This document shows positions 8,541 to 59,512 of a DNA stretch of 64,000 nt, piece after piece. The translations under genes and the position numbers were made by a program. Positions within the stretch are counted from its first letter, which is position 1. Each line of letters opens with the position of its first letter. Under the pieces are notes generated by a model that was not told where the DNA came from, did no database searches, and saw nothing but the letters and a program-made list of their open reading frames with translations. Origin of the DNA: a candidate division TM6 bacterium GW2011_GWF2_38_10 (GTDB lineage: Bacteria > Babelota > Babeliae > Babelales > RVW-14). The DNA lies in the NCBI GenBank assembly GCA_000992305.1, contig LBTY01000001.1, positions 848-64,847 of the forward strand. Reading direction: 5' to 3'.

Positions 8541-8730
8541 ATTCTTTCCTTATAGTAAGAAATTAATAATCAATAAAATGGTTTCCTATCATAAAAGTAT
8601 GATATTGAGAGATTTTTATGCTATGCAATATTTTTGTTAAAACGGATGCTTTTTATTGATTGAGCTTGTAATCTTCTTTGTTATACTCAGCCTAACGGTG
8701 ACATATAAGTTTTTTGTAGGGGAGATAGTG

Positions 8731-9663
8731 ATGAGAACTACGTTTATCGAGCAATTGGTTGCATATGCACATCAAGATGCTTCGGTTTATTTATTAACGG
8801 CTGATCTTGGGTATTCTGTTATTGAACCATTTAAGCAAGCCTTTCCTGATCGTTTTATTAACGTTGGGATTGCTGAGCAAAATATGATAGGCATTGCGGC
8901 GGGGCTTGCAATGCGCGGCAAAAAGGTTATTGCTTACTCCATTATTCCTTTTATTACCATGCGATGCTTTGAGCAGATTCGCAATAATATTTGTTATCAA
9001 AATATGACCGTTAAGCTTGTTGGTGTTGGAGGCGGGTTGAGTTATGGCTCGCTTGGCCATACGCATCATGCTATTGATGACATTGCTATTATGAACGTGC
9101 TTGCGCATATGAACATAGTTGCCCCCGCAAGCCGATATGAGGCTCAAGCGCTGATTCCTGATTTTTTTTCGCAGCCTGGTCCTGGCTATTTACGGCTTGC
9201 CAATACTGACGAGACTTTTTCGTATTCAGAATTATGCCGGCCGCAGCTTGGTAAGGCTTTTGAAATAATTCCTCATGATGAGCATCTTATTATTGCCACA
9301 AGTAACGCCCTTGATTTGGCCTATAAGGTGCAAACAGAGCTTGCAGCCTTGGGAGTGGATATGGGGCTTGTGAGTGCTCATACACTTAAACCATTTGATG
9401 GTGATTTTTTTGAACAAAAAAAAGCGACGCTTAAAACAGTTATCACTATTGAGGAACATTCGGTTATTGGGGGCTTGGGAAGTATTGTTGCTTCGGTGTT
9501 GCAGGCTCAAAATATGCATTATGTTGCATTAAAGGTTTTTGGTATTCGTGATGTGTATGCGCATACTGCTGGAAATCGCAAAGACTTGCTTGAATTAGTT
9601 GGTTTAACGCCTTGCGTAATTGTAAATGCAATACAGCGCAATAACAGTATAGGTGCCGTATGA
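8731..9663 (+). CDS. Transketolase C-terminal subunit (pyrimidine-binding plus C-terminal domains of a split transketolase)
   Basis: Motifs: LLTADLGYS, FINVGIAEQNMIGIAAGLAMRGK, GGGLSYGSLGHTHHAIDDIAIM, VITIEEHSVIGGLGS. I prefer the ATG at 8731 (MRTTFIEQL), preceded by ggggag, over the track start at 8656. The stop TGA at 9661-9663 overlaps the next ATG at 9660 (ATGA). Confidence 0.85.
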   Translation: MRTTFIEQLVAYAHQDASVYLLTADLGYSVIEPFKQAFPDRFINVGIAEQNMIGIAAGLAMRGKKVIAYSIIPFITMRCFEQIRNNICYQNMTVKLVGVGGGLSYGSLGHTHHAIDDIAIMNVLAHMNIVAPASRYEAQALIPDFFSQPGPGYLRLANTDETFSYSELCRPQLGKAFEIIPHDEHLIIATSNALDLAYKVQTELAALGVDMGLVSAHTLKPFDGDFFEQKKATLKTVITIEEHSVIGGLGSIVASVLQAQNMHYVALKVFGIRDVYAHTAGNRKDLLELVGLTPCVIVNAIQRNNSIGAV

Positions 9664-11141
9664 TGATGCAGTATAAAAAACATGTATATGCCGTTGGGCT
9701 TTTTCTTTTGGTTGTCGTTATTCTTGGTTTTTGCATACCAACGTGGGGTTTTAAGACTGATGACTGGGGGAATATTTGGCAAAGTATTACATCGTCTATG
9801 AGTGAATGGGGGAGGTTTTTTGTCGATTGCAAGAGTATCGAAATTTTTAATCATCCGTGTAATATTTCCCCAGCTCAACAAGAGCAGGCTTTTTTTTGCG
9901 GGTTATTTCGGCCGATGTCATTTTTATACTATGCGCCGCAGTATTGGTTGTTTGGATCGTGTGCGTATGGATATTTTTTAACAACTATTGTTATGCATGC
10001 CTTGGCAAGTGTTACTTTTTTTTATGTACTGGCTCATTTTTTTACTTGTGCGTGGGCTTTTTTGGGGGCATCTTTTTTTGCATTTCATCCGAGCCTTGGT
10101 CGGTGGCTTGGGTGGGTTAGTGCGCAAACGTACCAGATAGAATTGTTTGTGTTGCTGATGATTATTTTGTTGTTGTTGTATGTTTTAAATCGTCGATCAT
10201 ATCTTGCGTATGTACTTGCGCTTGTGTTGTTTGCAAGTAACTTATTTTTACGTGAACAAACATTTTTTTTACCGCTGTGGCTTATGGGGGCCATTGCTTT
10301 GTATCGTTATTATTGGAAGCGGCGGGGGGGGGGGCAGAGCGTTTTTTATGGTATTGCTTTGTCATTGCCTTTTTTGGGAACCTCAGCGTTTTATATTTTC
10401 CAGCGGCTTCGTTTTTTTCCGCTTACGGCTAAAACAACGACGCTCACGTTCGAGCCAACGTGGGCGTCCTTCATTAATCGAATGATTGAGCGGAAGTATG
10501 ATTTTGTAACGTATGTTGTGGATATGTTTGGATTTTCGTGGATGCCGGGTAATAATCAGCTTATTAAAGGTGTTGTGCTTGTAAGTGTTGTGTTTATGTT
10601 GCTTTTACTTTTTCGTCGTTATGGTTATTTTATTCCTGCACTTTTTATGGCGGCAAGTATTCCACTTTTTAGTTGGCCTTCACTTTTAATGCATGCTCAG
10701 CCGCGGTATATGTACATGGCTTTGCCCATTTTTATTGCTTTTGTAATGATGCTTTTGTGGCCATTAATTCACCAACGTACAGTTCGTTTTTTTGTGGCAT
10801 TTTTGGTGATGTTGGTGGTTGGCGCACATGGTTTTTTTGTATTCACTACAATGCACAAGCGTAGTAGCATGCTTGCGATGGTTACCGATTCGTTTATTAC
10901 CTTATTAAAAAATCCAAAAACCGATCATAAAGCTCTTTGTTTTATTAATCCCCCGGCCGAGTATTTTCAGGCTGGATCAGCGCAAGCTGTGTGGTTATTG
11001 CGCGCAAGTGATCAATATCCGGTATATCAGGTTGATGGGGTTGATGCTACAACCTATCAGCTTGAGCAGCAGTATCAGCGCCATAATCCCGTGTATATTT
11101 TGTGGGATGAGCAAGCGCAAAAATTTGTTATTCGGGATTAA
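9660..11141 (+). CDS. Polytopic membrane protein, GT-C-fold glycosyltransferase-like (PMT/TMTC/ArnT-type), paralogue 1
   Basis: Many hydrophobic helices. Early-loop acidic motif KTDDWG, then GLFRPMSFLYY, then REQTFFLPLW. The pattern is shared with the two downstream ORFs. Translationally coupled to the transketolase C subunit. Confidence 0.55.
   Translation: MMMQYKKHVYAVGLFLLVVVILGFCIPTWGFKTDDWGNIWQSITSSMSEWGRFFVDCKSIEIFNHPCNISPAQQEQAFFCGLFRPMSFLYYAPQYWLFGSCAYGYFLTTIVMHALASVTFFYVLAHFFTCAWAFLGASFFAFHPSLGRWLGWVSAQTYQIELFVLLMIILLLLYVLNRRSYLAYVLALVLFASNLFLREQTFFLPLWLMGAIALYRYYWKRRGGGQSVFYGIALSLPFLGTSAFYIFQRLRFFPLTAKTTTLTFEPTWASFINRMIERKYDFVTYVVDMFGFSWMPGNNQLIKGVVLVSVVFMLLLLFRRYGYFIPALFMAASIPLFSWPSLLMHAQPRYMYMALPIFIAFVMMLLWPLIHQRTVRFFVAFLVMLVVGAHGFFVFTTMHKRSSMLAMVTDSFITLLKNPKTDHKALCFINPPAEYFQAGSAQAVWLLRASDQYPVYQVDGVDATTYQLEQQYQRHNPVYILWDEQAQKFVIRD
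10324..10334 (+). repeat. Homopolymeric G tract (11 G) inside the GT-C paralogue 1 coding sequence
   Basis: Sequence aag cgg cgg ggg ggg ggg cag, encoding KRRGGGQ. Counted directly: positions 10324-10334 are all G. Confidence 0.95.
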
Positions 11142-11170
11142 TATAATTTTTTTGCACAGGGAGTAAGGGC

Positions 11171-12862
11171 GTGGTGGGTATTATAAAAAAAACTGGGGCG
11201 TGGTATTGCGCCCTATGGCTTTTTGTTTTTTGTTTTTTTGCGGTTGTTGGTATGGGGTGGTGGTTTCATGGAGATGATTTTTCTGGCCTTGCTCTTGGTA
11301 AGGCTATGCAGTCATGGGATGCTTTTTGGGCTCATCTTGTACAAGGTAATGTGAATAAATATTTTTTCCCCTCACATCATCCATTGTATGTGCCATTTAC
11401 CAATGAGCATGGACCGGCGCTTTCATTTTTTCAGGTGTATTATCGGCCAGTGCAGTGTGCTTATTTTGCATTTGCTCATTGGGCATTTGGATACGTAGGA
11501 TATTATTATTTTTTAGTTAATGTTGCCTTGCATGCGTGCAATACAACGGTATTATTTGCTTTTTTGCGTAAATTTACCACAACGTGGTGGGCGCTGGGGC
11601 TGGCTCTTTTTTTCGCTTTACATCCTCAGATTGGCTATCGCTTTGGAACGAGTGCTAATTTTCAGTACTATCTTAATGTTTTGCTTATGCTTGCGCTTGT
11701 ATGGGCGTATAAAAAATATCTTGATGGCGCCTCGTGGTCTTATCTTATGTGGTCTGTAGCGTTATTTTTTTTAGCGCTTTTTACGCGTGAAACAGTTATC
11801 GTTTTACCTCCTCTTTTGTGGCTTGGCGCGTGGGTGTACACAAAGCGTTTTGGTTGGAGTGCTATCGCTCATGGCATAGTCGTGCTTTTTTATCTTGCCG
11901 TGCGCTTGGCGCAGTACCCTTTGCCCACAAAGTCTGCTTTTGGCGGGGGCGGGTTGAATGTTGTGCAACTTTTGTTGGAGCGCAAAGATCAGTTTTTAGT
12001 TTGTTTGTATGATTCTTTGGGGTTGTCGTGGCTTTTGCATGGGTCTAAGGGGTTGCGGGTTATGTTAGTTGGGGTTGTTGCGGCAATTGTTTTGATGGCA
12101 TGGCGTCGACATGCACATTCCCTGGCATTATTTTTTTTATTAGGAGCCTATGTGTTATTACTTTGGCCATCGTGTTTTGGCGCTTATAGCCCTCGTTATT
12201 TTTATGAAGCATCACCAGCCTTACTTGCATTTTTTGCTGTGCTGCGCGGCAAGCAGCGTGTGCCGCTTTGGGTAGTGCGTTTTGGGGCGGGGGCTTGTGG
12301 AGCATTTTTAGCACTTTGCGCTTATTTTATCATGATAAATATTTCGTGCAGGGCGCAAAAAATGATGGCAATGCGTGATGGTTTTTGTTCATTAATGCAT
12401 GATGTTCGTGTAACAAGCGGGGAGCGACCGCTTGTATTTATTGGAGTTCCGATTGATGGATTTGGGACAGGAATTGAATGGGCTGCCTGGTTGTTTTTAA
12501 CGCCTTTGCATAATCAGGTGTATTATGATCCGTGCACCATAGTAACGCAGTATAAACGTAATGTGGTTATGCCCGTCGGATGGTACATGCGGTGCGCGCC
12601 GTATTATGAAAAACAATATGTTGCGATAGCAAAAGAGGGGCGGCGCATACGGTTTTGTAGTGTTGATCCAGCGTTTGTGCATTTTATTATTCAGCCGCAA
12701 TTATTGAGCCTTGGTGAGTATGACATTCACAAAAAAATGGTTATTGATGGTGTTGAAGTTGTGGTTGATTTTACGCTTGTTTTGGATGAGTTGTTGTATA
12801 AAAAAAATCCATTAGTTATAACGTGGAATTATGAACACAAAAAATGTTACGTACTTGAGTAG
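11171..12862 (+). CDS. GT-C-fold glycosyltransferase-like membrane protein, paralogue 2
   Basis: GTG start preceded by gggag. Motifs HGDDFSG, VYYRPVQCAYFAF and RETVIVLPPLLW. Polytopic. Confidence 0.55.
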   Translation: MVGIIKKTGAWYCALWLFVFCFFAVVGMGWWFHGDDFSGLALGKAMQSWDAFWAHLVQGNVNKYFFPSHHPLYVPFTNEHGPALSFFQVYYRPVQCAYFAFAHWAFGYVGYYYFLVNVALHACNTTVLFAFLRKFTTTWWALGLALFFALHPQIGYRFGTSANFQYYLNVLLMLALVWAYKKYLDGASWSYLMWSVALFFLALFTRETVIVLPPLLWLGAWVYTKRFGWSAIAHGIVVLFYLAVRLAQYPLPTKSAFGGGGLNVVQLLLERKDQFLVCLYDSLGLSWLLHGSKGLRVMLVGVVAAIVLMAWRRHAHSLALFFLLGAYVLLLWPSCFGAYSPRYFYEASPALLAFFAVLRGKQRVPLWVVRFGAGACGAFLALCAYFIMINISCRAQKMMAMRDGFCSLMHDVRVTSGERPLVFIGVPIDGFGTGIEWAAWLFLTPLHNQVYYDPCTIVTQYKRNVVMPVGWYMRCAPYYEKQYVAIAKEGRRIRFCSVDPAFVHFIIQPQLLSLGEYDIHKKMVIDGVEVVVDFTLVLDELLYKKNPLVITWNYEHKKCYVLE

Positions 12863-14261
12863 GTGGTGGGCGCTTTTTTTGTTGCCGGTGATAACATTTA
12901 TTTTTTTTGTTGTTGCTGGTTATGGATGGGAATTTTATAAAGAAGAAATTGATTTATTTTGTGCTGCCGACAAGGTTCAGTCATGGCGTGATATACTTAC
13001 GTTTTTTTTAGATGGAAATGCCAGTGGCAATGCTCATCCGAGTAATTACGTTGCGCCGCCATTAACGGTTTTTTCGTCATTTTATCGTCCGTTACTTTTT
13101 GTGAGCGCGTATGTGCAGTATGTTCTTTTTGGCATGCGTCCTTATCTGCACTATATAATTTCTATAGCATTTCATTGTTGTACCATTCCTGTTATGTATA
13201 TTTGGTTAACGCGCTGGATTTCTTCTGCTATTGCTGCGGCTGCATGTACGTTATTGGCTTTGCATCCTGCATGGGCCTTGTGGATTGGAAGTCCCAATAT
13301 GCAGCAGTATACCGTCAATACGCTGTTGATTGTGTTGATCGCATTAAGCGCGCATAATTTTGTGCTCAAAAAAAGTTGGTATGATCTATTAGCGGTGGCC
13401 GGTATGAGCATTGTTTCAATTTTTTATCGTGAAACCATGGTTGTGGCCCCCTTCTTTGTTGTAATGCTAGCTATGGGGCTGTCGGCGCATCGACGAGCGC
13501 TTATTGTTTTGTCTGCCGTGCTGAGTTTAATAAGCGCAGGGTATGTTGCATGCAAATTGTTTTTATACCCTTTGAGTGCGCCGGGTGCTGTTTCATCATC
13601 ATTTACCAACATGCATCATAGCATTGTATCGTTTTTGGGGCAGATAAAACTTTTTATAAGTGATTTTTGTGCGCTTTCATGGTTCCCGCAAGGGTATTCG
13701 TTAATAAAGGGTTTTGTTTTGGTTGCAATGCTGAGTGCTGCTTTTTTGTTGTGGCGGCCTTCTGCTTATAAGTGGCAGCTTGGATATGCGGCGCTGGGTA
13801 TGTTTTTTTTGTTATGGCCTGCTTTTTTGATAGGATATTTTTCGCCGAGCCGTTATTTTTATGAGGCATCGCCGGCTTATTTTTTGCTCGTTGGGTTATT
13901 GTTTGAGGGGCAAGGCCGGCGCGTGGTGCGGTGGGGGTGTATTATTCTTTTTATGTGTTTGAGCGGTTCGCTTGTGTATACGTGGCATACTATTTACGAG
14001 CGCAAAAAGGCCCCAGCGCTTTTTGCAGCAGCTTTAGCTCCATTGCGGAACAATGAAGTTATTAAACATAATGCGCTTTGTTTTGTAGGGTTTCCGTCGC
14101 ATCTATGTTCAACGGGCATTGCTCAGCAGATGTGGTTATATCGCATGAATGATTATCACTCTATTTATGTTGTTGATACGATGGAGCAGGCGGCTGAGTA
14201 TGATGCGGTGTTGATTGGGTGGGATGATAAAAATTATAATTTTTCTAAAGGAAGATTTTGA
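12831..14261 (+). CDS. GT-C-fold glycosyltransferase-like membrane protein, paralogue 3, with an apparently replaced C-terminal tail
   Basis: Motifs SFYRPLLFVSAY and RETMVVAPFFV. Overlaps paralogue 2 by 32 nt. The last 12 or so residues (DKNYNFSKGRF) diverge exactly where the 140-bp repeat ends at 14227. Confidence 0.55.
   Translation: MNTKNVTYLSRWWALFLLPVITFIFFVVAGYGWEFYKEEIDLFCAADKVQSWRDILTFFLDGNASGNAHPSNYVAPPLTVFSSFYRPLLFVSAYVQYVLFGMRPYLHYIISIAFHCCTIPVMYIWLTRWISSAIAAAACTLLALHPAWALWIGSPNMQQYTVNTLLIVLIALSAHNFVLKKSWYDLLAVAGMSIVSIFYRETMVVAPFFVVMLAMGLSAHRRALIVLSAVLSLISAGYVACKLFLYPLSAPGAVSSSFTNMHHSIVSFLGQIKLFISDFCALSWFPQGYSLIKGFVLVAMLSAAFLLWRPSAYKWQLGYAALGMFFLLWPAFLIGYFSPSRYFYEASPAYFLLVGLLFEGQGRRVVRWGCIILFMCLSGSLVYTWHTIYERKKAPALFAAALAPLRNNEVIKHNALCFVGFPSHLCSTGIAQQMWLYRMNDYHSIYVVDTMEQAAEYDAVLIGWDDKNYNFSKGRF
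14088..14227 (+). repeat. Direct repeat copy 1 (140 bp), the 3-prime end of GT-C paralogue 3
   Basis: Hand alignment with 17403-17542 gives 137 of 140 identical positions. The mismatches lie in ccgTcgc/ccgCcgc, tcacT/tcacC and gcagG/gcagT. Confidence 0.9.
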
Positions 14262-14404
14262 TGAAGAAAAAATGGCCAGTTATAAGGTAAGATACCACAA
14301 CGAAACCATGATTAACAGATTTTTTTCAATGTTAGCGCCAGGGGTAACTTTGAAAAAATCAACCCCTATTTTCAAGGAGGCCGTGAACTATGGAACTATT
14401 AATT

Positions 14405-14653
14405 TTAGTTAACGTTTAAAACTGTCCACAGTATTGTTATTGGCGTATTGATAAAAAGATCTTCTGGTTTTTCAGCATTAAAATTATAACTGATTATCAA
14501 GTCGCCAACTTTTAGATCTTTTATAGGGATTAAGCCGTTTGGCGTTAAAACTTGTTGTGTTTCAATATGCCCTGCAAACGAGGTGTTTATAATGCTCATG
14601 TTGCATAAAATGATACTTAAGAATAACAGCAATTGCTTTTTGATAGTGAACAT
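14405..14653 (-). pseudogene. Truncated 5-prime copy of the Hint-domain toxin gene (signal peptide plus the start of the Hint domain only)
   Basis: The 82-aa ORF MFTIKKQLLLFLSIILCNMSIINTSFAGHIETQQVLTPNGLIPIKDLKVGDLIISYNFN... is nearly identical to the N-terminus of 15148-16446. Homology, including about 45 nt upstream of the ATG, ends near 14436, and the ORF stops soon after. Confidence 0.7.
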
Positions 14654-14728
14654 GAATCTGTTCCTTGGGAATTTATTTTAATAATTTTGGTGGTAAGTAT
14701 TTTGTTATTTTGCATAATAATTTTTTAT

Positions 14729-15133
14729 TTAATTTATTATTTTCATAGTTGGTTTTTTTGGATCAATTAAATATACAGATTCGCCTATAACTTTAATAGT
14801 TAAATCATGAGTCATACTATTATCATCAACGTGGCTTGCTTCTATAGTAAATTCATATAAATTATGACTAATTTGTTTTGCATAAATATCATAAATTTCA
14901 TCATTTGGTAGTAAACCAGATTGATCAAATATTATTTTTTTTACGCCATCTATAACTATTATCCCATTTTCTATATCTTCAGTTGTATAAAAATTCCATT
15001 TCCCTAAAATATCTCTTATTCGAGATATACAGTTTATATGTATTTCGAAATTGTTATCTATACCATTAATTACCATTTTAGTACAATATCGATCTCCTAG
15101 ATAAAGAGTTTTTAAAAAATCGATTGTATTCAT
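14729..15133 (-). CDS. Candidate immunity protein for the upstream Hint-domain toxin
   Basis: Small ORF directly downstream of the toxin stop at 15148. I prefer the ATG at 15133 (MNTIDFLKTLYLGDRYC...), preceded by aaagga, over the TTG at 15163. No signal peptide. The function is inferred from position only. Confidence 0.45.
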   Translation of the reverse strand: MNTIDFLKTLYLGDRYCTKMVINGIDNNFEIHINCISRIRDILGKWNFYTTEDIENGIIVIDGVKKIIFDQSGLLPNDEIYDIYAKQISHNLYEFTIEASHVDDNSMTHDLTIKVIGESVYLIDPKKPTMKIIN

Positions 15134-15147
15134 AAGTGTTAATCCTT

Positions 15148-16446
15148 TTAATATATTGGCCAATGAGCTTCGGAGCTATTATTTGGAACGATATTACCTT
15201 TTGTGTTAATAGATGGGCCTTGTCCTTTTTTGCCTGGTCCAGTCCCTTCTAGATGTGCATGGCCATGAGGTAAGTCTGATTTGGGTGGATGTCCGTGAGG
15301 GTTTAGCCTTTGATAATTGGATCCATTTGGATAAGTAGTATGCGTATCAATACCATTTTTTCCAGCGGGTATTGTTTTTCCTCCAATCGGCTCTACCATT
15401 ATATTTCCTTTATTATCAACTATAAATCGACCAATCTCTTTCCCTGTGTTTTTATCAATAATTGGCTTTTCCTTATCTCTATCTTTTTTTCCAAATGGCG
15501 GGGGCGGAGGGGGATTTTTGTTGCCTTTAGGATCTTTATTTTTTTCTGAGAGTTCTTGATTTTTAGAATTATCATCAGAATTTTTATCTATAGACATTTC
15601 AAGAAATAATTGTTCTTTATGCCCTTTGTCAAATAATGTATAGAGCGCATAAGATCCCACCGCCGCGGCGCCGATAGCCCAGCCGGCGGGGCCTGCAAGT
15701 AAACTTAAGCCCCCGGCAGCAATACTTGCTCCCGCAAAAGATAATGATGCTGGGGTGGAGCCAAATGCCAAGGAAATTCCTGCTGCAAGTGCTGGTAAGC
15801 CATTGTGCATTAATATCAGTGGAATATTTTTGTCGTCTTTGCAAGCTATGCCTTGTGAAAATACCGGAATTAAGTAATTATGGGGTTCTTGCAATTCAAT
15901 GGAATACAGGTCAATGCGAGTAAATATAGTTTTTCTTTTAACACGTTTTATGCTTTTCCAAAAATATTTTTTTACTCTTCTTTCTACCTTGTACAGCTCT
16001 TTTTTATGTGTTTGAGTAATGGGAATAGTGAGTAGATTGGAATCAAGAAGCATGTGGCTAGAGGTAAGATATTGTGCTTCAATAACTTCTATGCCAAAAG
16101 TTAGACTCTCCTGATCTTTATCTTCTTGTGTCGCTACTAAAAATTTTTGTTGAGGAGAAGCGCTGATGCATCGATTATCTTCAATGTAAATTTCATAAAG
16201 TGCATCAGCATAATTTTTTTGAGTTTTTATTATTGGCGTATTGATAAAAAGATTTTCAGGTTTTTTAGTATTAAAATTATAACTGATTACCAAATCGCCA
16301 ACTTTAAGATCTTTTATGGAGATCAATCCATTTGGCGTTAAAACTTGTTGTGTTTCAATATGCCCTGCAAAGGAGACGTTTATAATGCTTATGTTGCATA
16401 AAATGATACTTAAGAATAACAGCAATTGCTTTTTGATAGTGAACAT
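15148..16446 (-). CDS. Secreted Hint-domain polymorphic-toxin-like protein. Architecture: signal peptide, degenerate Hint domain, Gly/Ala-rich hydrophobic segment, charged/poly-Pro linker, His-rich C-terminal module
   Basis: Signal peptide MFTIKKQLLLFLSIILCNISIINVSFA. Hint-like blocks VLTPNGLISIKDLKVGDLV and PHNYLIP...PLILMHN, ending in the intein-type HN. Then GLPALAAGISLAFG...GPAGWAIGAAAVG, then KNPPPPPPFGKK. C-terminal module: GIDTHTTYPNGSNYQRLNPHGHPPKSDLPHGHAHLEGTGPGKKGQGPS...SEAHWPIY. Confidence 0.6.
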   Translation of the reverse strand: MFTIKKQLLLFLSIILCNISIINVSFAGHIETQQVLTPNGLISIKDLKVGDLVISYNFNTKKPENLFINTPIIKTQKNYADALYEIYIEDNRCISASPQQKFLVATQEDKDQESLTFGIEVIEAQYLTSSHMLLDSNLLTIPITQTHKKELYKVERRVKKYFWKSIKRVKRKTIFTRIDLYSIELQEPHNYLIPVFSQGIACKDDKNIPLILMHNGLPALAAGISLAFGSTPASLSFAGASIAAGGLSLLAGPAGWAIGAAAVGSYALYTLFDKGHKEQLFLEMSIDKNSDDNSKNQELSEKNKDPKGNKNPPPPPPFGKKDRDKEKPIIDKNTGKEIGRFIVDNKGNIMVEPIGGKTIPAGKNGIDTHTTYPNGSNYQRLNPHGHPPKSDLPHGHAHLEGTGPGKKGQGPSINTKGNIVPNNSSEAHWPIY

Positions 16447-16643
16447 GGACCTACCACTTATGGAATTTATACCAATAATTTTGGGGTAATGTAGAACGGT
16501 TTTTTTAAAAAAGCAACAGATTTTTTGAATTTATTTAAACCATTTTGAGATTTTAAAGTCCTCGCTTTTTCCACCATTCATCAGTTTTAAATTCATTAGG
16601 AAAGTTTTTTTTGTAAACAATATCAAATTTAAGTTCATTAGAT

Positions 16644-17244
16644 CTTATGCACAATAAGGAACTTTAGATAAAAAAAAAGTGGGCAATCTTTTTTTAGCCG
16701 ATTAAGCTAAAAATTGAAAAAGGGACTGACTACACGAACATGATAGAAAAAATAATGAAAAATGAAAAGAAATGTAAAAGATTTTTTTGGATAAGCAGTC
16801 AACAAATTGACACTCTCATTAAGCGTTTAGAGCCCTTTTTAAGGGAATATAAAAATGCTCGCTTATCACGATTTAATAGAAAAAAGGCTCTTGGTGGCGG
16901 ACGTCAATTCGATCCTGATGCACTAAAAACCATGCTGCGTTTGTCTTTTGTACTACAAGTTGTATCTAACACAAGAATTTGTTACCCTCATTTTTATCGT
17001 TAATCAAAGCACTGTCTCGCGAATTATTTCATGGCTTTCAAAGTTAATATAAAAGGCCGCCGATCCAGAGTTTGAAACAATTCTTCACAAAACAGAAGTT
17101 ATCACAAAACAACGTATTAGAAATTTTGTTGAACTGCGAAAAGCATACCCTGATTTTGCAGATGGTTATAACGGATGCAAGTGAAACACCGTGTAATGGG
17201 TATAGGGGAGCTACATTTTATAAATAAATTTTATTGTGCATAAG
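16644..17244 (+). mobile_element. Decayed IS remnant (IS5/DDE_Tnp_4-like) bounded by 14-bp inverted repeats
   Basis: Perfect inverted repeats: cttatgcacaataa (16644-16657) and ttattgtgcataag (17231-17244). They enclose frameshifted transposase fragments. Confidence 0.55.
16740..17215 (+). pseudogene. Frameshifted and truncated transposase (HTH_Tnp_4 plus the start of a DDE_Tnp_4-like domain)
   Basis: The ORF 16740-17003 (...RFNRKKALGGGRQFDPD...) continues in another frame as LLYYKLYLTQEFVTLIFIVNQSTVSRIISWLSKLI. Later, in yet another frame, it reads LQMVITDASETPCNG, which resembles the first catalytic-D block. There are stops in all frames after that. Confidence 0.55.
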
Positions 17245-17262
17245 CTCTATTTCATTAATCCT

Positions 17263-17333
17263 TATTTAAATCATCGCAAAGAGTTAATCTTTTTGGTGTG
17301 TATAGCATAGATTCTTAATGGTGCCTATGCTTC
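17263..17333. repeat. Dispersed roughly 70-nt repeat, copy A
   Basis: tatttaaatcatcgcaaagagttaatctttttggtgtgtatagcatagattcttaatggtgcctatgcttc aligns with 51545-51615. The 20-nt core gtatagcatagattcttaat is identical in both copies (17300-17319 and 51582-51601). Confidence 0.8.
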
Positions 17334-17348
17334 CAGGGTTACTGATAA

Positions 17349-17573
17349 ATGCGATTTGAATTTGATGCTGCGTGTCATCGTTTGCAGTATTTTTGGTTTG
17401 CGGGGTTTCCGCCGCATCTATGTTCAACGGGCATTGCTCAGCAGATGTGGTTATATCGCATGAATGATTATCACCCTATTTATGTTGTTGATACGATGGA
17501 GCAGTCGGCTGAGTATGATGCGGTGTTGATTGGGTGGGATGAGTTGCGTCAGGAGTTTGTTATTTTGAGTTAA
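17349..17573 (+). pseudogene. Orphan 3-prime fragment of a GT-C paralogue 3-type gene, containing direct repeat copy 2 at 17403-17542
   Basis: Encodes ...GFPPHLCSTGIAQQMWLYRMNDYHPIYVVDTMEQSAEYDAVLIGWDELRQEFVILS, matching the C-terminus of 12831-14261. Its tail WDELRQEFVILS resembles the tail of paralogue 1 (WDEQAQKFVIRD). Confidence 0.75.
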
Positions 17574-26681: not shown

Positions 26682-28319
26682 ATGCTTTCTCGATTGTTAT
26701 TGTTGGCTTTATGTTTTAGCAATTACGCGGTATTTGCAACTTTACCACAAGATTCAGCTCAATCTGTATCGTCAAAAAGTCAGGATGAATCTATATCATA
26801 TGCTTCATTAACTGGTTGGAGTGCGGCTTGTTTGTCTTCTTATGATGAGCAGAAGGCGCCGAAAATGTATAGTTATCCAAGTCCAGTTTTATCATTTGAA
26901 GAATTTGTGCGTGTTTTTAATGAATATAAAGAAAATATGCAAGAAAAAGGAATTTTGAATGAAGCAACATGGAATGCTATTGATCAAAAAACTGCTATTT
27001 TATCTGATGACGTTAAGCATCCTCATGTAACCGTTTTACGAATAGGTAATGAGAGTAAGGTTTGTTTTATAGGTGATTTACATGGAAGTTTGCATTCATT
27101 ATTAAGAAGTTTGTGGCGGCTTGTAGCTCTTGGTTATTTGGATGATCAATTTAAGATAATAAAAAAAGATTTTTATATGGTTTTTACAGGCGATTATGTT
27201 GATCGAGGGCGTTTTAGTATTGAAGTTTTATACACGTTGTTGCGTTTAAAATGTGTTAATTGGGAACAAGTCTATCTTATTCGTGGAAACCATGAAAAAA
27301 TATTTCTGGATATGGTTGAACCACGAGTAATAGACTTCGAGATTGAAAAGAAGTATGGGTATGAACAATATGAAGAAATTAATCCGTTATTATATCAATT
27401 ATATGATACAATGCCTTTAGCTGTTTATATTGTTGTTAATGACGAAGTAATAAAAGCTGTTCATGGTGGGTTTGCTCCATATAGTTATTATGATGTTAAT
27501 CATTTAAAAAATAATAAAGAAGTGCCTGAATCTTTACCTTCAATTAGGTATATTTATATTCCACTTGGGTCACAAGGGAATTTTAGTGATCAATATCCGG
27601 AGAATAGTTATTCTGGATATCAGTGGTGTGATTTTGAAATATATAAAAAACCTAAATCTTCAAAAAATTTAGAATTTTTTAAAGATTCTTTATCACAAGA
27701 TTTTATTAAAAAAGCAGGATCCCGTATTTGGCGTGTTGGCCGCTCTGCTAGTCAGTTGTTACTTGAAAAAGCTGGAATCCGCCTTATGATGAGGGGCCAT
27801 CAACATCATTCTTTTGGTTTAAAGGTTTTGGGAATTTCAGGGGATTCTGATACGTTTAAACCTGCAACGGGTGATTGGTGTCGTGGAAATCCTAGTTTGT
27901 ATAATTGGGTGGCTGCGCTTTCTCATATTGGTGCGATTGATGAACATAATGAATCTGATGGATTTTTAGTTTCTAAAATGATTCCTATTTTTACTTTTTC
28001 TTCAGCAATAGAAGGGGTTGGTGTAAAAAGTGATTGTTTTGGTATTCTAAGTATCAAAGGGCCGTTTGAAGAATGGAGACTTAAAGTCTATGAGTTCCCA
28101 GTTTGGTTTGCTTCAACTAATCCATCAATAAGCAAATTAACCAATCCTTTTACGTTGATTAAACCAATAAATAAAACTATTCAAGATAAATCGTACAAAT
28201 CTACCTCTGGCATGGAGGATTCTATTTTTGTAGAATTTTCAGAAGAGCAAGGTGATCAAGCAACAATTAAAGGATGGTTGCAAGAGATTGTTAATACGTC
28301 TGCTGGCAATAATCAATAA
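26682..28319 (+). CDS. Exported PPP-family phosphatase-like protein, tandem copy 2
   Basis: Leader MLSRLLLLALCFSNYAVFA. Same motif set: GDLHGSLHS, GDYVDRGRFSIEVLYTLLRLK, RGNHE, VHGGFAP, RGHQH, FSSAIEGVG. Has a 50-nt run identical to copy 1 (27156-27205 equals 25348-25397). An alternative start lies at 26670. Confidence 0.8.
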   Translation: MLSRLLLLALCFSNYAVFATLPQDSAQSVSSKSQDESISYASLTGWSAACLSSYDEQKAPKMYSYPSPVLSFEEFVRVFNEYKENMQEKGILNEATWNAIDQKTAILSDDVKHPHVTVLRIGNESKVCFIGDLHGSLHSLLRSLWRLVALGYLDDQFKIIKKDFYMVFTGDYVDRGRFSIEVLYTLLRLKCVNWEQVYLIRGNHEKIFLDMVEPRVIDFEIEKKYGYEQYEEINPLLYQLYDTMPLAVYIVVNDEVIKAVHGGFAPYSYYDVNHLKNNKEVPESLPSIRYIYIPLGSQGNFSDQYPENSYSGYQWCDFEIYKKPKSSKNLEFFKDSLSQDFIKKAGSRIWRVGRSASQLLLEKAGIRLMMRGHQHHSFGLKVLGISGDSDTFKPATGDWCRGNPSLYNWVAALSHIGAIDEHNESDGFLVSKMIPIFTFSSAIEGVGVKSDCFGILSIKGPFEEWRLKVYEFPVWFASTNPSISKLTNPFTLIKPINKTIQDKSYKSTSGMEDSIFVEFSEEQGDQATIKGWLQEIVNTSAGNNQ

Positions 28320-28364
28320 GCATCAGAAGGTTTTGATGTGCAGAATTAATTAAAAGGGGCGGTT

Positions 28365-30044
28365 ATGAAAAAAGTTGTAATGTTATTGTTTGGTCTTTTG
28401 ATTGTGTGTCAGGAAGTGCATGCATTAATGGAACAACGATTTTTTCATAGCCGCTTACATGCCTTACCTTCAGCATTATACTATAAAAATTTAATGCAAA
28501 AGACATCATTGCCAGAAGAAAAAAAAGTTCGGTTACCGCGTTTATCTTCACAAGACGTGCAAGATTATTATCAGTCCTATGAAGGATCTATTCCTTATAC
28601 ATTTACAACATTTTCATTATGGAGCGCGCGTTGTTTTTCGTCATATGATGAACAGTTTAGTAATTATGATTATCTTTCTGATTCTATTTTACCAGCCCAG
28701 GAATTATTGCGTGTTTTGTATGATTTTAGAGGCAAGGCAGCAAGCGCGGGGGTTCGAGTTAATGTTTCTTCTGATGAATCTGATGAGAGTAGTGAAAATT
28801 ACATAAAAAATGCACATGCTGCACAAGTTCGGCTTGAGGGTGATAGTACCATATGTTTTATTGGGGATTTGCATGGAAGTATTCATTCATTGTTGCGGAA
28901 TTTATGGCGACTTGTTGCATTGGGCTATCTGGGTGATGATTTTGTTATAAAAGATAAACATTTTCATATGGTTTTTACGGGTGATTATGTTGATCGGGGT
29001 CGTTATGGTGCGGAGGTTTTGTATACACTTTTGCGGTTGAAATGTGCAAACTGGGATTCTGTGTTTTTAGTTCGTGGAAACCATGAATTGCCAATTGTTA
29101 ATAATCGCATTGTTTCAAAGGGTGGAGGTTTTTCAAAAGAATTACAGTTAAAATATGCTGATAATGCTGATTATGTAAAATCTATGATTTACAGAGCATA
29201 TCAGGATTTGCCTTTGGCTCTTTATATAACCAAAGAAAGCAAAACAATACTTGCGTGTCATGGTGGATTTGCGCCATTTCCTTATTACACAGAATTATTA
29301 AAAAAATTTCAGACACTTTCTGCTGAAAAAAAAGTTTATTATTTGCCGATTACGTTAGATAAAAATGAATTAATTTCTTGCGGGTTTCAATGGTGCGACA
29401 TTTATCAATGCGATTCTGTTGGGGTACCTCAAGAGATTTTAGCGGATTCTTTACGGGTTTGGGCAATGTCAGTTCCATGCGTTTTAAAAAAAATGCATGA
29501 GGCGGGAGTGTGTGCTTTTTTTCGAGGTCATCAGCATCGAGAGTATGGTATGAAAATGTTTTTGCATCAAGCAACCTATGATCATTTGCAGATGGACTCA
29601 TCTAAACGATTACCGAGTATTTTTCATTGGCGTGTTGCCCTTAAGTATGCTCCTTTAGGCAAGGGAATTGATGAACATAATGGGAGTGGATTTTTATTAA
29701 AAAATCATATACCTGTTTTTACCTTTTCTTCTGCCACTGAAGGAGTAGGGATCCCCTTTGATTGTTTTGGTTTGTTATTTGCTCATGGTGATTATGATTT
29801 TTGGCGTTTAAAAGTTTTTGAATATCCTTGTGCTTTGGGGTTTTCTTCATATAAAAAAAATAGTCATGTTTTTACACAAATTGTGCCAAACGATAATGAA
29901 GATACCCGAGTGCTGAATGATGTGTTACAATCAACATCGGGCATCAAAGATATAGTGTCTATTCAATTTTCTTTACATGCTCAGGATGAAGATGATCTAA
30001 AAAAAACACTTATAGATATTGCATCTTCAGTTTCAGCTAACTGA
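28365..30044 (+). CDS. Exported PPP-family phosphatase-like protein, tandem copy 3
   Basis: Leader MKKVVMLLFGLLIVCQEVHA. Motifs GDLHGSIHS, GDYVDRGRYGAEVLYTLLRLK, RGNHE, CHGGFAP, RGHQH, FSSATEGVG. RBS aagggg. Confidence 0.8.
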   Translation: MKKVVMLLFGLLIVCQEVHALMEQRFFHSRLHALPSALYYKNLMQKTSLPEEKKVRLPRLSSQDVQDYYQSYEGSIPYTFTTFSLWSARCFSSYDEQFSNYDYLSDSILPAQELLRVLYDFRGKAASAGVRVNVSSDESDESSENYIKNAHAAQVRLEGDSTICFIGDLHGSIHSLLRNLWRLVALGYLGDDFVIKDKHFHMVFTGDYVDRGRYGAEVLYTLLRLKCANWDSVFLVRGNHELPIVNNRIVSKGGGFSKELQLKYADNADYVKSMIYRAYQDLPLALYITKESKTILACHGGFAPFPYYTELLKKFQTLSAEKKVYYLPITLDKNELISCGFQWCDIYQCDSVGVPQEILADSLRVWAMSVPCVLKKMHEAGVCAFFRGHQHREYGMKMFLHQATYDHLQMDSSKRLPSIFHWRVALKYAPLGKGIDEHNGSGFLLKNHIPVFTFSSATEGVGIPFDCFGLLFAHGDYDFWRLKVFEYPCALGFSSYKKNSHVFTQIVPNDNEDTRVLNDVLQSTSGIKDIVSIQFSLHAQDEDDLKKTLIDIASSVSAN

Positions 30045-31112
30045 TTAAGAAAGTGTGTCAAGAAAACGTTTTGCTTGCAGCGCCGCGCGGCAACCATCGC
30101 CTGCAGCTGTTATAGCTTGTATAAAATGATTGTCTGCAATATCTCCCGCTGCAAAAATACCAGGGCGCGATGTTTCTTGATGATTTTTAAGAGTGATAAA
30201 TCCTTGTGGCGTGAGTTCAAGTTGATCTTTAAAAAGGGTTGTATTTGGACGAGATCCTATGGCCAAAAAGATTCCATCAACTGCGATTGTTTCTTGTTTA
30301 TTTGTTTTTGTGTTTGTTGTGTGAATAGCAGTAACGCCATAAGCATCACCTTCTATTTGGTGAGGGGCAGTATTAAAGCGTACTGAAACATTTTCTTTTT
30401 TTAGCAATAGATCCAGCGCCTTTTTGTCTTTTGCTGCAAAAACATCTTTGCGGATAAGCATGGTGACCGAAGAGGCAATGTTCGATAAATAATGAGCTTG
30501 CTCAACCGCAGAGTCTCCGCCGCCAACAACAACAACTTTTTTATTTTTGTAAAATGCACCATCGCATACAGCACAATTGCTTACGCCGCGCCCCCAAAAA
30601 CCATCTTCTCCTTGTTCACCTGGTATGTGCAAAAAGTTTGGCTCGGTGCCCATTGCAATAATGCACGTGTGAGTTGCGATTGTTTTAAGTTTTCCATCAG
30701 GTAGTTCAATGGTTATTTGATAGGGTAGTGAGGTAAATGTAACGTTTTGTACTACGCCATCTATTATAGTCGCACCGCTTTGGAGCGCGTGTTTTTTTAT
30801 TTTTTCTACAATCGAAGCTCCAGATACGTGATATTCTCCTGGCCAATTATTAACTTCATGTGATTGTCCGAGAGCCCCTCCGGGTTTTGGTCCTTCAACC
30901 ACAAGGGCTGGGATGTTACTTTGCTGCAGGTAAATCGAAGCTGTTAAGCCTGCAATGCCGCCGCCGAGTATAACAACAGGGACTATGTCTTGAGGCTTGA
31001 CCGATTGAGGCTTTGAATTTTCCTCTATGGTTGTTTTGGTGCAGCTTGTAAACAACGTAAGGCAAACAACACTACAGAGTGTTATTATATTTTTTTTTAT
31101 TGTCATATTCAT
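30045..31112 (-). CDS. Thioredoxin-reductase-like flavoprotein with an N-terminal lipoprotein-type leader
   Basis: GGGIAGLTA (FAD), CAVCDG (redox-active dithiol), GGGDSAVEQA (NAD(P)H), FAAGD. About 44 extra N-terminal residues: MNMTIKKNIITLCSVVCLTLFTSC-TKT. Lies 21 nt downstream of phosphatase copy 4. Confidence 0.75.
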   Translation of the reverse strand: MNMTIKKNIITLCSVVCLTLFTSCTKTTIEENSKPQSVKPQDIVPVVILGGGIAGLTASIYLQQSNIPALVVEGPKPGGALGQSHEVNNWPGEYHVSGASIVEKIKKHALQSGATIIDGVVQNVTFTSLPYQITIELPDGKLKTIATHTCIIAMGTEPNFLHIPGEQGEDGFWGRGVSNCAVCDGAFYKNKKVVVVGGGDSAVEQAHYLSNIASSVTMLIRKDVFAAKDKKALDLLLKKENVSVRFNTAPHQIEGDAYGVTAIHTTNTKTNKQETIAVDGIFLAIGSRPNTTLFKDQLELTPQGFITLKNHQETSRPGIFAAGDIADNHFIQAITAAGDGCRAALQAKRFLDTLS

Positions 31113-39314: not shown

Positions 39315-41252
39315 TTAATTTTTTTTCCAAAAAATTTTGCATGCTTCAACGTATTCCATAGCTTCGTATAAATTCATGGTGGCAACACCTATAACTTGAT
39401 CAGCTCCGCCGTAGTACATGTAGATTGTATTATTAACACGTACGGCTCCACAAGGGAATACGACATTATTTACTTGTCCTTCCAATTCCCATGGCATTAC
39501 TGGTTCAAAAAGCGGTTCATCGGTGCGTGCTATAATGTGTGTTGGATTTTCAAGATCAAGCAGTAGTGCCCCGACTCGGTAAAAGTGATCATCGGAAGAA
39601 ACGCCATGATAGAGTAATACCCATCCCTTTTCAGTTTTGATTGGTGGTGCCGACATTCCTATTTTTAGACTATCCCAATGTCCAGGGCGTGGACAAATCC
39701 AGCGATATTCTTCAAGCCATGTATTCCCATCAAAGTCAAGTGTTTTGCAAAAAGAAGAGTCGATATCATCACCGCTTCGATGAATAATGAAATAATTGCC
39801 ATGAATTTTTTCAGGGAAAATACACGAATTTTTATTGCTAATTCCAGGAGGCGAAATAAGCACAGGCATTGCCCATTTATCCCATGCTTGGTTAAGAAAA
39901 TCATGCGTGCTGATAAAGGTGAGGGCAACGCGGGGGAGGCTTTGTCCATCAACTGCCGTATAGAGCATGTAAACGCGATCATCAATAAGTGTAATGCGTG
40001 GATCTTCGCATCCAGTATTAGCATTCGGAACTTTTTTTTGTTCAAATGACGCTCGAGGAACATATATTGGCTCTTGAGCGCGATAATCTATATGAATACC
40101 ATCTTTTGTGGTTGCATATCCTAAAACAGAGGTGTTATCTTGTGACATTGCTCGATAAATAATATGTGTTGTTCCTCCAAGGTGAATTGCCGCTGGATTG
40201 AATACTGCGCGAGATTCCCATGCATGATTTTGAATAGGACTTAGGATGGGATTGCTTTCGGCTCGGGTAAATGAAAGTTTTTTGTGCCGTTGTAAAAGTT
40301 TTGTGATAAGTGCTTCTTTGTTGATTGTTGCACGACAGCATGTTGTATCAGCAGCTCCGTAGTAAAGGTGAAGGTTATTATCTTCTTCTAAAATACCTGT
40401 TGGGAATACAACGTTTGGTACAATGCCGATCCGTTCATAATATTCATCAGGTGTTAAAAGAGGGGCTTTCGTATGGGCTATTATGTTTTTGGGATTTTCA
40501 AGATCAAGCAGGACTGCTTCAATGCCAAATAGTGGGTTGCCGGTAAAATAATTTTTTATGTATGAGTAAATCATGAGCCAGCCTTCATCTGTTTTAATCG
40601 GTGTTGCACCGCATTCAACATGATCATGTGGCGAGCGCGCAAGTGGCAGTATATTTTGTTCATAATTTTCATACCATGTCTGCCATAGATTTTGATTCCA
40701 GATGTCGCTGATATGATCAAAGCTTACAAGGCATACTGCCGCTGGTGGCATGTCGGTATGAACGGTAAGAGTAGCCCAATATTTACCATTAATTTTTTCA
40801 GGAAAAAGTGCCATGCCTTTTGCATTGAATGGTGTTACTAAATGTTTTTCTTCTATGGTGTATAAATCTTTGGTAAGTGCAACGCCAACTTTAATTCCTT
40901 GTGCATTAAATGGATAGGTTGATAAGGCGGTATAAAAAATATAATAGGTATCATCTATTTTAGTTACGCGTGGATCTTCGCAGCCAAATTGCTCCCAGGG
41001 TTGCTCTGGGGTAATGATGCATTTGCGATCATGAAAATGAATGCCATCGGTACTTGGTGCAAGGCCAATGGTTGAAAGATGAAGTCTGGTTTGGGCTATA
41101 TTGTGATAATGATCTCGAGATAAGGCTCTGTAGATAAGATATATTTTATCATCTTTTTTTACGGGGCATCCATTAAAAACAGCATGGGCTTCCCATGAGT
41201 GAATTCGTTTAGGTTTTAAAATGGGGTTGCTTTCATGTCTTTGTATGAGCAT
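39315..41252 (-). CDS. Tandem double GH130-family (beta-mannoside phosphorylase/glycosidase-like, DUF377) protein
   Basis: Two modules, each with NPIL.P....WE..AVFN, CEDPR and YYG.AD: HESNPILKPKRIHSWEAHAVFN...GCEDPRVT...LYYGAADT, and again ESNPILSPIQNHAWESRAVFN...GCEDPRIT...MYYGGADQ. No signal peptide. Confidence 0.75.
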   Translation of the reverse strand: MLIQRHESNPILKPKRIHSWEAHAVFNGCPVKKDDKIYLIYRALSRDHYHNIAQTRLHLSTIGLAPSTDGIHFHDRKCIITPEQPWEQFGCEDPRVTKIDDTYYIFYTALSTYPFNAQGIKVGVALTKDLYTIEEKHLVTPFNAKGMALFPEKINGKYWATLTVHTDMPPAAVCLVSFDHISDIWNQNLWQTWYENYEQNILPLARSPHDHVECGATPIKTDEGWLMIYSYIKNYFTGNPLFGIEAVLLDLENPKNIIAHTKAPLLTPDEYYERIGIVPNVVFPTGILEEDNNLHLYYGAADTTCCRATINKEALITKLLQRHKKLSFTRAESNPILSPIQNHAWESRAVFNPAAIHLGGTTHIIYRAMSQDNTSVLGYATTKDGIHIDYRAQEPIYVPRASFEQKKVPNANTGCEDPRITLIDDRVYMLYTAVDGQSLPRVALTFISTHDFLNQAWDKWAMPVLISPPGISNKNSCIFPEKIHGNYFIIHRSGDDIDSSFCKTLDFDGNTWLEEYRWICPRPGHWDSLKIGMSAPPIKTEKGWVLLYHGVSSDDHFYRVGALLLDLENPTHIIARTDEPLFEPVMPWELEGQVNNVVFPCGAVRVNNTIYMYYGGADQVIGVATMNLYEAMEYVEACKIFWKKN

Positions 41253-41279
41253 GAGTGATCTCCTTTTTTTGGGGGAATA

Positions 41280-42263: not shown

Positions 42264-42285
42264 GATTATCCTCTCTTATCAAGAA

Positions 42286-43227: not shown

Positions 43228-43430
43228 TAAAGTCTCCAAAAAAATGAGTATTCATTTATTGATTAGTATTTTAGCTTATATTCTTTTTTTTGTACTGCCA
43301 ATCTAAAAAATATGTAGTTAGATTAAATCACGAAAATTAATACATCTTTTTAAAAATAGTTGTTTTTTTTTTATAAAAAATATTACAGTTAACCAAGTTG
43401 CAATACTCTATTGTGAAAAAAGGAGATGCT

Positions 43431-59511: not shown

Positions 59512-59512
59512 A

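Follow-up and report, generated by a model that had tools for sequence, protein, structure and literature searches.

The DNA of the TM6 bacterium GW2011_GWF2_38_10 analysed here (64,000 nt of contig LBTY01000001.1, positions 848-64,847, forward strand, of assembly GCA_000992305.1; hereafter the window) encodes the two halves of a split transketolase at loci that are separated by about 46-50 kb. The C-terminal half (tktC) overlaps the first of three membrane-protein genes, and the N-terminal half (tktN) ends a cassette of sugar genes. This arrangement raises the question of whether the two loci once formed a single pathway and whether that pathway is still at work. On balance, it is probable that both are remains of one ancestral operon for lipid-carrier glycosylation outside the cytoplasmic membrane, and that the two halves still cooperate. 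The initial annotation of the sequence had already read the loci as one surface or protein glycosylation system that was physically split; gene order in relatives supports this reading, but the system lies in three pieces rather than two. The source genome is a metagenome-assembled genome (MAG) of 1.05 Mb in 29 contigs with a completeness of 89%. Dependentiae (TM6)/Babeliales are obligate associates of protists.

The first locus consists of tktC and the three membrane paralogues located 3' of it, which are abbreviated here as M1, M2, and M3:

8731-9663, plus strand: tktC, 310 residues, Pyr and C-terminal half of a split transketolase-like enzyme dependent on thiamine diphosphate (ThDP)
9660-11141, plus strand: M1, 493 residues, predicted GT-C paralogue 1, start overlapping the tktC stop
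11171-12862, plus strand: M2, 563 residues, predicted GT-C paralogue 2, with a longer, beta-rich C-terminal domain of ~170 residues
12831-14261, plus strand: M3, 476 residues, predicted GT-C paralogue 3, with EE instead of DD and the last ~10 codons replaced via an insertion

The second locus is the distal sugar cassette:

55648-56370 (displaced tail 56339-56455), plus strand: rfbF, glucose-1-phosphate cytidylyltransferase
56503-57546, plus strand: rfbG-like gene, cytidine diphosphate (CDP)-glucose 4,6-dehydratase of the short-chain dehydrogenase/reductase (SDR) type
57512-58537, plus strand: GT2, putative polyprenyl-phosphate sugar synthase of the PgfS/ArnC/GtrB type with two C-terminal membrane helices
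58534-59511, plus strand: SDR gene, epimerase/reductase (Pfam Epimerase, E 9.5e-47)
59513-60346, plus strand: tktN, 277 residues, ThDP-binding N-terminal half of the split transketolase

The products of tktN and tktC share the architecture of a split transketolase between them, with the ThDP motif in the N-half and the Pyr domain, the catalytic glutamate, and the C-terminal domain in the C-half. In a Pfam search, tktC matches Transket_pyr (PF02779, E 8.6e-28) and Transketolase_C (PF02780, E 1.2e-15) and lacks the N-domain; its closest PDB match is the C-chain of the split transketolase of Carboxydothermus (6yaj, E 5.6e-49), and the catalytic glutamate motif (GIAEQN) is retained. The product of tktN matches Transketolase_N (PF00456, E 4.4e-36) and the N-chain of PDB entry 6yak (E 3.1e-57) and retains the GDGE (LGDGECQEG), SKGH, and GHP motifs. 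The TGA of tktC (9661-9663) overlaps the ATG of M1 (9660-9662) in the tetranucleotide ATGA at 9660-9663 (GCC GTA TGA / ATG ATG ATG). A search of the whole genome recovered one N-half, one C-half, and one full-length transketolase (contig C11), which covers the housekeeping role here. The halves are each other's unique partners in the genome, are encoded by adjacent genes in all relatives that possess them, and are both under selective constraint, which suggests that the two chains form one active heteromer.

Comparison with related genomes reveals the original arrangement. A split transketolase is present in 13 of 40 relatives, all from the same family as the window; in each of these carriers, tktN lies next to tktC, and M genes follow tktC in at least nine. 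The same-genus genome GCA_964527595.1 carries a single block that starts with a divergent rfbH-E3 pair and continues with rfbF-rfbG-GT2-SDR-tktN-tktC-M1-M2, with stop-start overlaps both between tktN and tktC (TAATG) and between tktC and M1. The order in other Babeliales is SDR-tktN-tktC-M-M(-M), and the SDR gene is located directly upstream of tktN in all relatives examined. The ancestral state is one Babeliales operon with contiguous tktN and tktC. These results bear out several statements of the initial annotation: tktC is a C-half only and is joined to the next gene by an ATGA overlap, the N-half at 59513-60346 ends a cassette for sugar and polyprenyl-phosphate metabolism (rfbF-rfbG-GT2-SDR-tktN), and split halves are normally adjacent. 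The genome contains no second tktN/tktC pair, and none of the 13 relatives keeps the halves apart.

In the genome studied here, the ancestral block is found in three pieces, at 8.7-14.3 kb and 55.6-60.3 kb of the window and on contig C14, each of which adjoins ankyrin-repeat genes. The cut between tktN and tktC lies no more than a few bases from the stop of the former and the start of the latter:

8541-8730, no strand: left breakpoint, a 190-bp AT-rich spacer between a divergent ankyrin gene and tktC
60347-60527, no strand: right breakpoint, a spacer after tktN, followed by a lineage-specific gene of 496 codons where relatives have tktC

On the left side, the first residues encoded by tktC are MRTTFI, just as in relatives, and the gene is preceded by a Shine-Dalgarno sequence of its own (GGGAG at ~8720-8724); no remnant of the tktN 3' end was found upstream of it in any frame. 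The spacer is collinear with a contig (L015) of a sister lineage (94% identity), which is represented by an independent assembly from another sample (ENA ERZ16299754; 92-96% protein identity to the window). In the sister lineage, one contig carries ankyrin-ankyrin-tktC-M1-M2, and a second carries rfbF-rfbG-GT2-SDR-tktN, followed by unrelated genes and aspS. Because both sides are reproduced in this independent assembly, the break is real and older than the divergence from the sister lineage. The fragmentation of the MAG into 29 contigs might invite the explanation that the separation of tktN and tktC is an assembly artefact, but this is extremely improbable, given that the same break occurs on both sides in the other assembly and that the 46 kb between the halves contain ordinary housekeeping genes.

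The genes in this interval, which include rpsA, ndk, glyA, nrdD, ftsZ, and ftsA, indicate that the halves were separated by a rearrangement and not by an insertion; the insertion of a mobile element between them was considered and rejected on the same grounds. Neither repeats nor insertion sequence (IS) elements were detected at the breakpoints, and none of the four spacers recurs in the genome. On the right side, similarity to the sister lineage breaks off 10 nt short of the tktN stop and starts again at 60476. In the sister lineage, tktN is followed by an extra 5.3 kb (L040, 4807-10100) that is absent from the window (60337-60475) and encodes a protein of 1015 residues without assigned function, an AAA-ATPase_like/PDDEXK_9 protein, and an open reading frame (ORF) of 53 codons; the right breakpoint is therefore a hotspot of gene gain and loss. 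An 86-nt stretch from this variable region (L040, 9972-10057) recurs with 94% identity at 46885-46970 of the window and may represent a short dispersed repeat.

The membrane proteins encoded downstream of tktC are mutual paralogues (BLASTP E 4e-37, 2e-27, and 2e-30; 24-28% identity). They share an early acidic motif (KTDDWG in M1, HGDDFS in M2, YKEEID in M3), an RP motif (LFRP, YYRP, and FYRP), and an RE(Q/T) motif (REQ, RET, and RET). In an alignment of 72 members of the M family (sets of 35 and 37 sequences), three elements are fully or almost fully conserved, namely the acidic pair, the RP dipeptide, and the (R/K)E motif: R84, P85, and E199 (M1 numbering) are invariant, and the acidic pair has D or E in the first position and D in the second in 69 of 72 members. 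The orthologues of M3 have KE (sister lineage) or EE (locus L017), so that only the second acidic position is kept, as glutamate, in that clade.

Sequence searches did not place M1-M3 in any characterised family. None of the three has a Pfam or NCBIfam match even at E 0.1, and searches of Pfam, NCBIfam, and the PDB with the proteins or with profiles of 3, 35, and 37 sequences returned nothing meaningful; Pfam PMT_2 was touched weakly by 2 of the 35 and 4 of the 37 relatives (6 of 72; best E 2.2e-6). The identification as GT-C enzymes therefore comes from fold comparison only. An AlphaFold2 model of M1, based on the alignment of 35 sequences, is of high quality (predicted local distance difference test score, pLDDT, 91.4; predicted TM-score, pTM, 0.92), and a Foldseek comparison with the PDB places GT-C enzymes in all of the top 26 ranks (probability 0.97-1.0, TM-scores 0.34-0.52; E 4.4e-6 for the best). 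The significant matches (probability about 1.0, TM-scores 0.43-0.52) comprise PglB, STT3, ArnT, ALG12/ALG9, AglB, AftA, DPY19, and Pmt4, at 9-14% sequence identity. The model helices and the positive-inside rule yield a topology of 11 transmembrane (TM) helices with the N-terminus inside and the C-terminal domain outside. D34 and D35 of M1 directly follow TM1; together with R84, H143, E199, R349, Y350, and Y352, they are predicted to face the periplasm.

On these grounds, M1-M3 are predicted to be GT-C-fold enzymes of an unnamed family that is closest in style to the TMTC/PMT_2/ArnT group. The initial annotation had described them as three polytopic paralogues with acidic, RP, and RE(Q/T) motifs and compared them to GT-C enzymes of the PMT/TMTC/ArnT type. 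The paralogy and the motifs were recovered (with EE as the acidic pair of M3), the acidic motif is predicted to lie in the periplasm as anticipated, and the model of M1 matches GT-C enzymes to the exclusion of other families. The resemblance to GT-C enzymes thus stands at the level of the fold, but membership in PMT/PMT_2 (GT39), ArnT (GT83), or TMTC (GT105) does not. The proteins have no tetratricopeptide repeats (TPR) and end in a small C-terminal domain of alpha/beta or beta-rich type. For M2, a separate model of this domain (pLDDT 86) was compared with PDB folds for a clue to the acceptor and gave no match (best E 0.25, probability <=0.15).

The relatives of M1-M3 are annotated as hypothetical proteins in metagenome-derived genomes of Dependentiae/Babeliales (TM6). 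A profile search of 1.84 billion representatives retrieved 173 of them at E<=1e-30, 878 at E<=1e-10, and 19,533 at E<=1e-3, the last of which probably extend into other GT-C proteins. By hhalign (86.7%, E 4e-6), residues 82-330 of the M family align with a TMTC-like protein with membrane and TPR parts, whose gene lies on contig C6 of the genome studied here. This contig carries at least two tandem genes of that kind (~26900-30400, locus L010), in which a GT-C-like domain (YEFVFDDFPTI) is fused to long TPR arrays; the membrane part of their products has no Pfam match.

Of 41 relatives, 26 carry M genes in 1-7 copies, mostly in tandem, and the arrays of Babeliales (2-7 copies) adjoin a PgfS/ArnC-like GT2 gene, with or without a transketolase. 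The six-gene cassette rfbF-rfbG-GT2-SDR-tktN-tktC, in turn, also occurs without M genes. Because M genes that lack a transketolase still adjoin a related GT2, the constant partnership is that of GT2 and M, and the rfb and transketolase genes form the module that supplies the sugar in one subgroup. That M genes constantly adjoin a PgfS/ArnC-type GT2 also suggests that M1-M3 use a polyprenyl-phosphate-linked sugar as donor. It is conceivable that M1-M3 have the GT-C fold without being transferases, acting instead as glycan polymerase- or ligase-like or structural proteins, or that only one of them is catalytic; the lack of membership in a characterised GT-C family by sequence, the modest TM-scores (0.43-0.52), and the deviating acidic motif of M3 would fit this explanation. 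It is nevertheless highly unlikely, as all significant fold matches are lipid-carrier glycosyltransferases, the acidic pair after TM1 and other polar residues are (near-)invariant across the family, and the pairing with a polyprenyl-phosphate sugar synthase is constant.

The genes of the distal cassette point to the origin of this sugar. The product of rfbF scores 279 bits against its best model, TIGR02623 (cut-off 300), and covers profile positions 3-224 of 255. The best model for rfbG is TIGR02622 (214 bits, below the cut-off of 278), and the protein is 77% identical to its same-genus orthologue. The GT2 protein aligns over its full length with the NCBIfam models of PgfS (201 bits, best) and ArnC (123.5 bits), and its C-terminal stretch is hydrophobic; because both scores are below the equivalog cut-offs, it is of the same type as PgfS and ArnC but not an orthologue of either. 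RfbH (CDP-4-keto-6-deoxyglucose 3-dehydrase), encoded on contig C14, exceeds its cut-off (670 vs 423 bits), and the E3-like reductase beside it has the FNR-like part only and lacks the ferredoxin domain. The two genes stand isolated on this contig (32606-36838) between an ankyrin-repeat gene and a gene for an AAA_14/DUF4143-type ATPase.

A second GT2 gene belongs to a group of genes elsewhere in the window (39315-43239, minus strand). Its GtrB/DPM1-like product of 317 residues is 32% identical to the GT2 of the cassette, and the gene adjoins two genes of family GH130 (beta-mannoside phosphorylases), one of which encodes a double-domain protein of 645 residues. These genes may belong to a separate, mannoside-related surface pathway.

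The divided operon most likely serves as a Gtr/Arn/Pgf-type system, through which an acceptor in the envelope receives a CDP-deoxyhexose-derived sugar that the transketolase may have branched. The ancestral operon would have had the order rfbF-rfbG-GT2-SDR-tktN-tktC-M1-M2(-M3), with rfbH-E3 divergent beside it. RfbF and RfbG, together with RfbH and the E3-like reductase, would convert glucose-1-phosphate to a CDP-4-keto-6-deoxy or 3,6-dideoxy hexose; this set of RfbF-, RfbG-, RfbH-, and E3-like genes makes CDP-4-keto-3,6-dideoxyhexose a plausible intermediate. The tktN/tktC heteromer and the SDR protein might then tailor the keto sugar by adding a two-carbon hydroxyacetyl branch and reducing the product, analogous to YerE/YerF. 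The PgfS/ArnC-type GT2 would load the sugar onto polyprenyl phosphate, and after flipping, the periplasm-facing GT-C paralogues would transfer it to one or more envelope acceptors, such as lipopolysaccharide (LPS), another glycan, or proteins. Since LpxC is encoded in the genome, LPS is a possible candidate. Rearrangements beside expanding ankyrin-repeat genes would have cut the operon between tktN and tktC and detached rfbH-E3, leaving the transketolase halves to be expressed from unlinked loci while still working together. The spacer at 8541-8730 would now have to supply the promoter for tktC-M1-M2-M3.

The role proposed for the transketolase is the most tentative step of this scheme. A two-carbon branch made by the transketolase and subsequently reduced by the SDR protein is the chemistry that we favour by analogy, although we consider it less likely than not. 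Yersiniose is built by YerE from CDP-3,6-dideoxy-4-keto-glucose, and there are proposals that split-gene transketolases catalyse the hydroxyacetyl branching of keto sugars on the way to miharamycin and amipurimycin; all proposed cases of transketolase branching concern the secondary metabolism of Streptomycetes (nucleoside antibiotics), and none has been shown in vitro (PMC12247030). Literature searches for a transketolase in glycan clusters of the rfb/yersiniose type or of Dependentiae yielded this review but no direct description of such an enzyme. The more specific proposal that a two-subunit carboligase of the transketolase class adds the hydroxyacetyl group to a CDP- or lipid-linked 4-keto-3,6-dideoxyhexose, and that GT-C paralogues centred on Dependentiae deliver the product, a rare branched sugar, from polyprenyl phosphate to different envelope acceptors of an intracellular parasite of protists, must be considered doubtful. 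If true, it would represent the first transketolase-type counterpart of YerE in the synthesis of cell-surface glycans.

Continued function of the genes can be judged from their rates of change relative to the sister lineage (synonymous divergence, dS, 0.15-0.28). The ratio of nonsynonymous to synonymous substitutions (dN/dS) is lowest in the cassette (0.024 for GT2, 0.034 for rfbG, 0.041 for rfbF before its frameshift, and 0.052 for the SDR gene) and amounts to 0.115 for M1, 0.134 for tktC, 0.147 for M2, and 0.16 for tktN; the values for comparison are 0.059 for aspS and 0.30 for a lineage-specific neighbour gene. Together with the retention of the ThDP and catalytic motifs, these low ratios argue for purifying selection that persisted after the split and thus for continued function.

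Several observations weigh against a single pathway that is still intact. The dN/dS values of tktN and tktC are higher than those of the other sugar genes. In the alignment with 6yaj, the residues with which transketolases canonically bind sugar phosphates seem to be kept, which would fit a sugar-phosphate donor and gives a nucleotide-sugar acceptor no preference over an ordinary sugar phosphate. A promoter upstream of tktC is not demonstrable, as the three sigma-70-like matches at 8563-8687 equal the number expected in shuffled sequence; the same holds for the counts of a terminator scan. No match to a GtrA-type flippase (PF04138) was obtained in the whole genome (89% complete), in which proteins of the ArnE/F type were not searched for. 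M3 has a glutamate in place of the near-invariant second aspartate, and its C-terminal tail is replaced. A homopolymeric tract in M1 could act as an on/off switch. A 4-nt deletion in rfbF at ~56338, present in this genome only, shifts the last ~45 codons out of frame, and the genome has no second copy of rfbF; if real, the deletion may leave the first step of the pathway dead in this genome.

The rfbF deletion is evident from a comparison of the sister sequence, TATAAACATCGTGGATTT, with that of the window, TATAAACGGATTT (TATAAAC|GGATTT), and agrees with a tblastn match in two frames. Because the displaced tail is still open, conserved, and nearly identical to that of the sister lineage, the deletion is either a very recent event, a variant of a minority, or an artefact of assembly. 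The changes in M1 and M3 involve two further features:

10324-10334, plus strand: G11 homopolymer inside M1, in the codons for RRGGGQ of the cytoplasmic KRRG loop
17349-17573, plus strand: orphan copy of the M3 3' end, an ORF of 74 codons beyond an inserted island, matching the M profile with E 9.6e-18

The sister lineage has GGGGGTTGGGG at the site of the G11 tract, and the entire genome contains only 10 G/C runs of at least 8 nt. The insertion in the 3' end of M3 is an island of ~3.2 kb (14262-17573) that encodes a Hint-domain protein, of which a second, truncated copy is also present, and contains a DUF6258 gene as well as an IS-like remnant; it is bounded by a duplication of ~155 nt (~98% identical) of the M3 3' end (14085-14239). 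The tail of the orphan copy, WDELRQEFVILS, is closer to the tails of the other paralogues.

These features also speak for a decaying relic, i.e., a pathway that no longer makes its sugar and whose signature of constraint predates a very recent inactivation. The fragmentation of the operon, the rfbF deletion without a paralogue, the replaced 3' end of M3, and the G11 tract would all be expected in this case, as would the smaller genome (1.05 Mb vs 1.4 Mb in a relative) and the lack of counterparts to most genes of the same-genus glycan island (contig C2 of that genome, 17-38 kb). We nonetheless regard such decay as unlikely, because all eleven other reading frames are intact, the dN/dS values of 0.02-0.16 are in the same range as that of aspS, and the state of the rfbF tail marks the deletion as recent in the extreme, confined to a minority, or erroneously assembled; moreover, rfbF is intact in the sister lineage, which shares the break.

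The retained phosphate-binding residues bear on yet another explanation, according to which the GT-C paralogues and GT2 carry out the glycosylation while the split transketolase and the SDR protein serve a separate function, such as the supply of sugar-phosphate precursors. Many M arrays of Babeliales are paired with a GT2 in the absence of any transketolase, and in another phylum, a split transketolase is located beside a transaldolase gene in a polysaccharide locus. However, the presence of a full-length housekeeping transketolase, the conserved, tight, and overlapping order rfbF-rfbG-GT2-SDR-tktN-tktC, and the overlap of the tktC stop with the M1 start both here and in relatives render a separate function quite unlikely. 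A common operon whose parts still cooperate in glycosylation remains the reading that we prefer.

The base composition of the two loci differs from that of their surroundings. The G+C content is 0.383 for the genome, 0.419 for 8731-14261 (89th percentile of 2-kb windows), and 0.452 for 55648-60346 (99th percentile), and tktN has the highest value of any gene-sized stretch in the genome (0.493), 7 points above tktC (0.419). The impression of the initial annotation that both blocks are richer in G+C than their ankyrin neighbours is confirmed by computation, but for the first block the contrast stems mainly from the low G+C content of the ankyrin neighbour (0.307, 2nd percentile) and less from the block. 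The cluster of the same-genus relative does not, as a whole, depart from the average G+C content of its contig.

A large family of proteins annotated as "hypothetical" (173 cluster representatives at E<=1e-30) thereby gains a fold and a likely role. Babeliales genomes in which the family occurs carry 1-7 copies, and its members are probably main shapers of the cell surface of Dependentiae. The locus adds one more case of a cassette of split transketolase, SDR, and GT2 genes, which may make carbon-branched sugars. Although the break of the operon is itself a modest evolutionary curiosity, the unlinked genes of a presumed heteromer, both of them under constraint, constitute a natural experiment on the importance of the co-translation of subunits. 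Lipid-carrier glycosylation is a theme already known, to which the locus adds an undescribed GT-C family and a putative tailoring module of the transketolase type; its particular feature is the clean and conserved separation of the halves of the presumed heteromer and of the operon around them.

Several known systems resemble parts of this one. The split transketolase of Carboxydothermus hydrogenoformans (6yaj/6yak), the closest solved relative of both halves, has the same two-chain architecture and cofactor motifs but is encoded by adjacent genes and has ordinary transketolase activity, whereas the halves in the window lie 46-50 kb apart amid glycan genes. The genes for YerE/YerF of the yersiniose A pathway likewise combine a ThDP enzyme and a reductase with RfbF/RfbG/RfbH-type genes for CDP-4-keto-3,6-dideoxyhexose; YerE, however, belongs to the decarboxylase class and not to the transketolase class, and the context in the window is envelope glycosylation in Dependentiae. 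M1-M3 share with TMTC/PMT_2 (GT105, GT39) and ArnT (GT83) the acidic pair after TM1 (xFxxDD), the His/Pro and Glu motifs, and ~11 TM helices, but differ in matching no Pfam or NCBIfam model and no PDB sequence and in lacking a TPR domain. The mycobacterial Emb/Aft arabinosyltransferases are also tandem GT-C paralogues that presumably use one lipid-linked donor, and AftA and EmbB are among the fold matches; by contrast, M1-M3 are much smaller (about 480-560 residues), have an unrelated C-terminal domain that matches no PDB fold, and depend on a different donor pathway. Further parallels are GtrA/B/C, ArnC/ArnE-F/ArnT, and PgfS/PgfM1/PgfE/PgfM2 of S. mutans, which combine a GT2 with C-terminal helices, a GT-C enzyme at the outer face of the membrane, and an epimerase or reductase in the operon. 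The system in the window differs from these in its three tandem GT-C paralogues of no named family, the lack of a GtrA match, a donor that would be supplied by a CDP-deoxyhexose route with a split transketolase, and the distribution of its operon over three loci.

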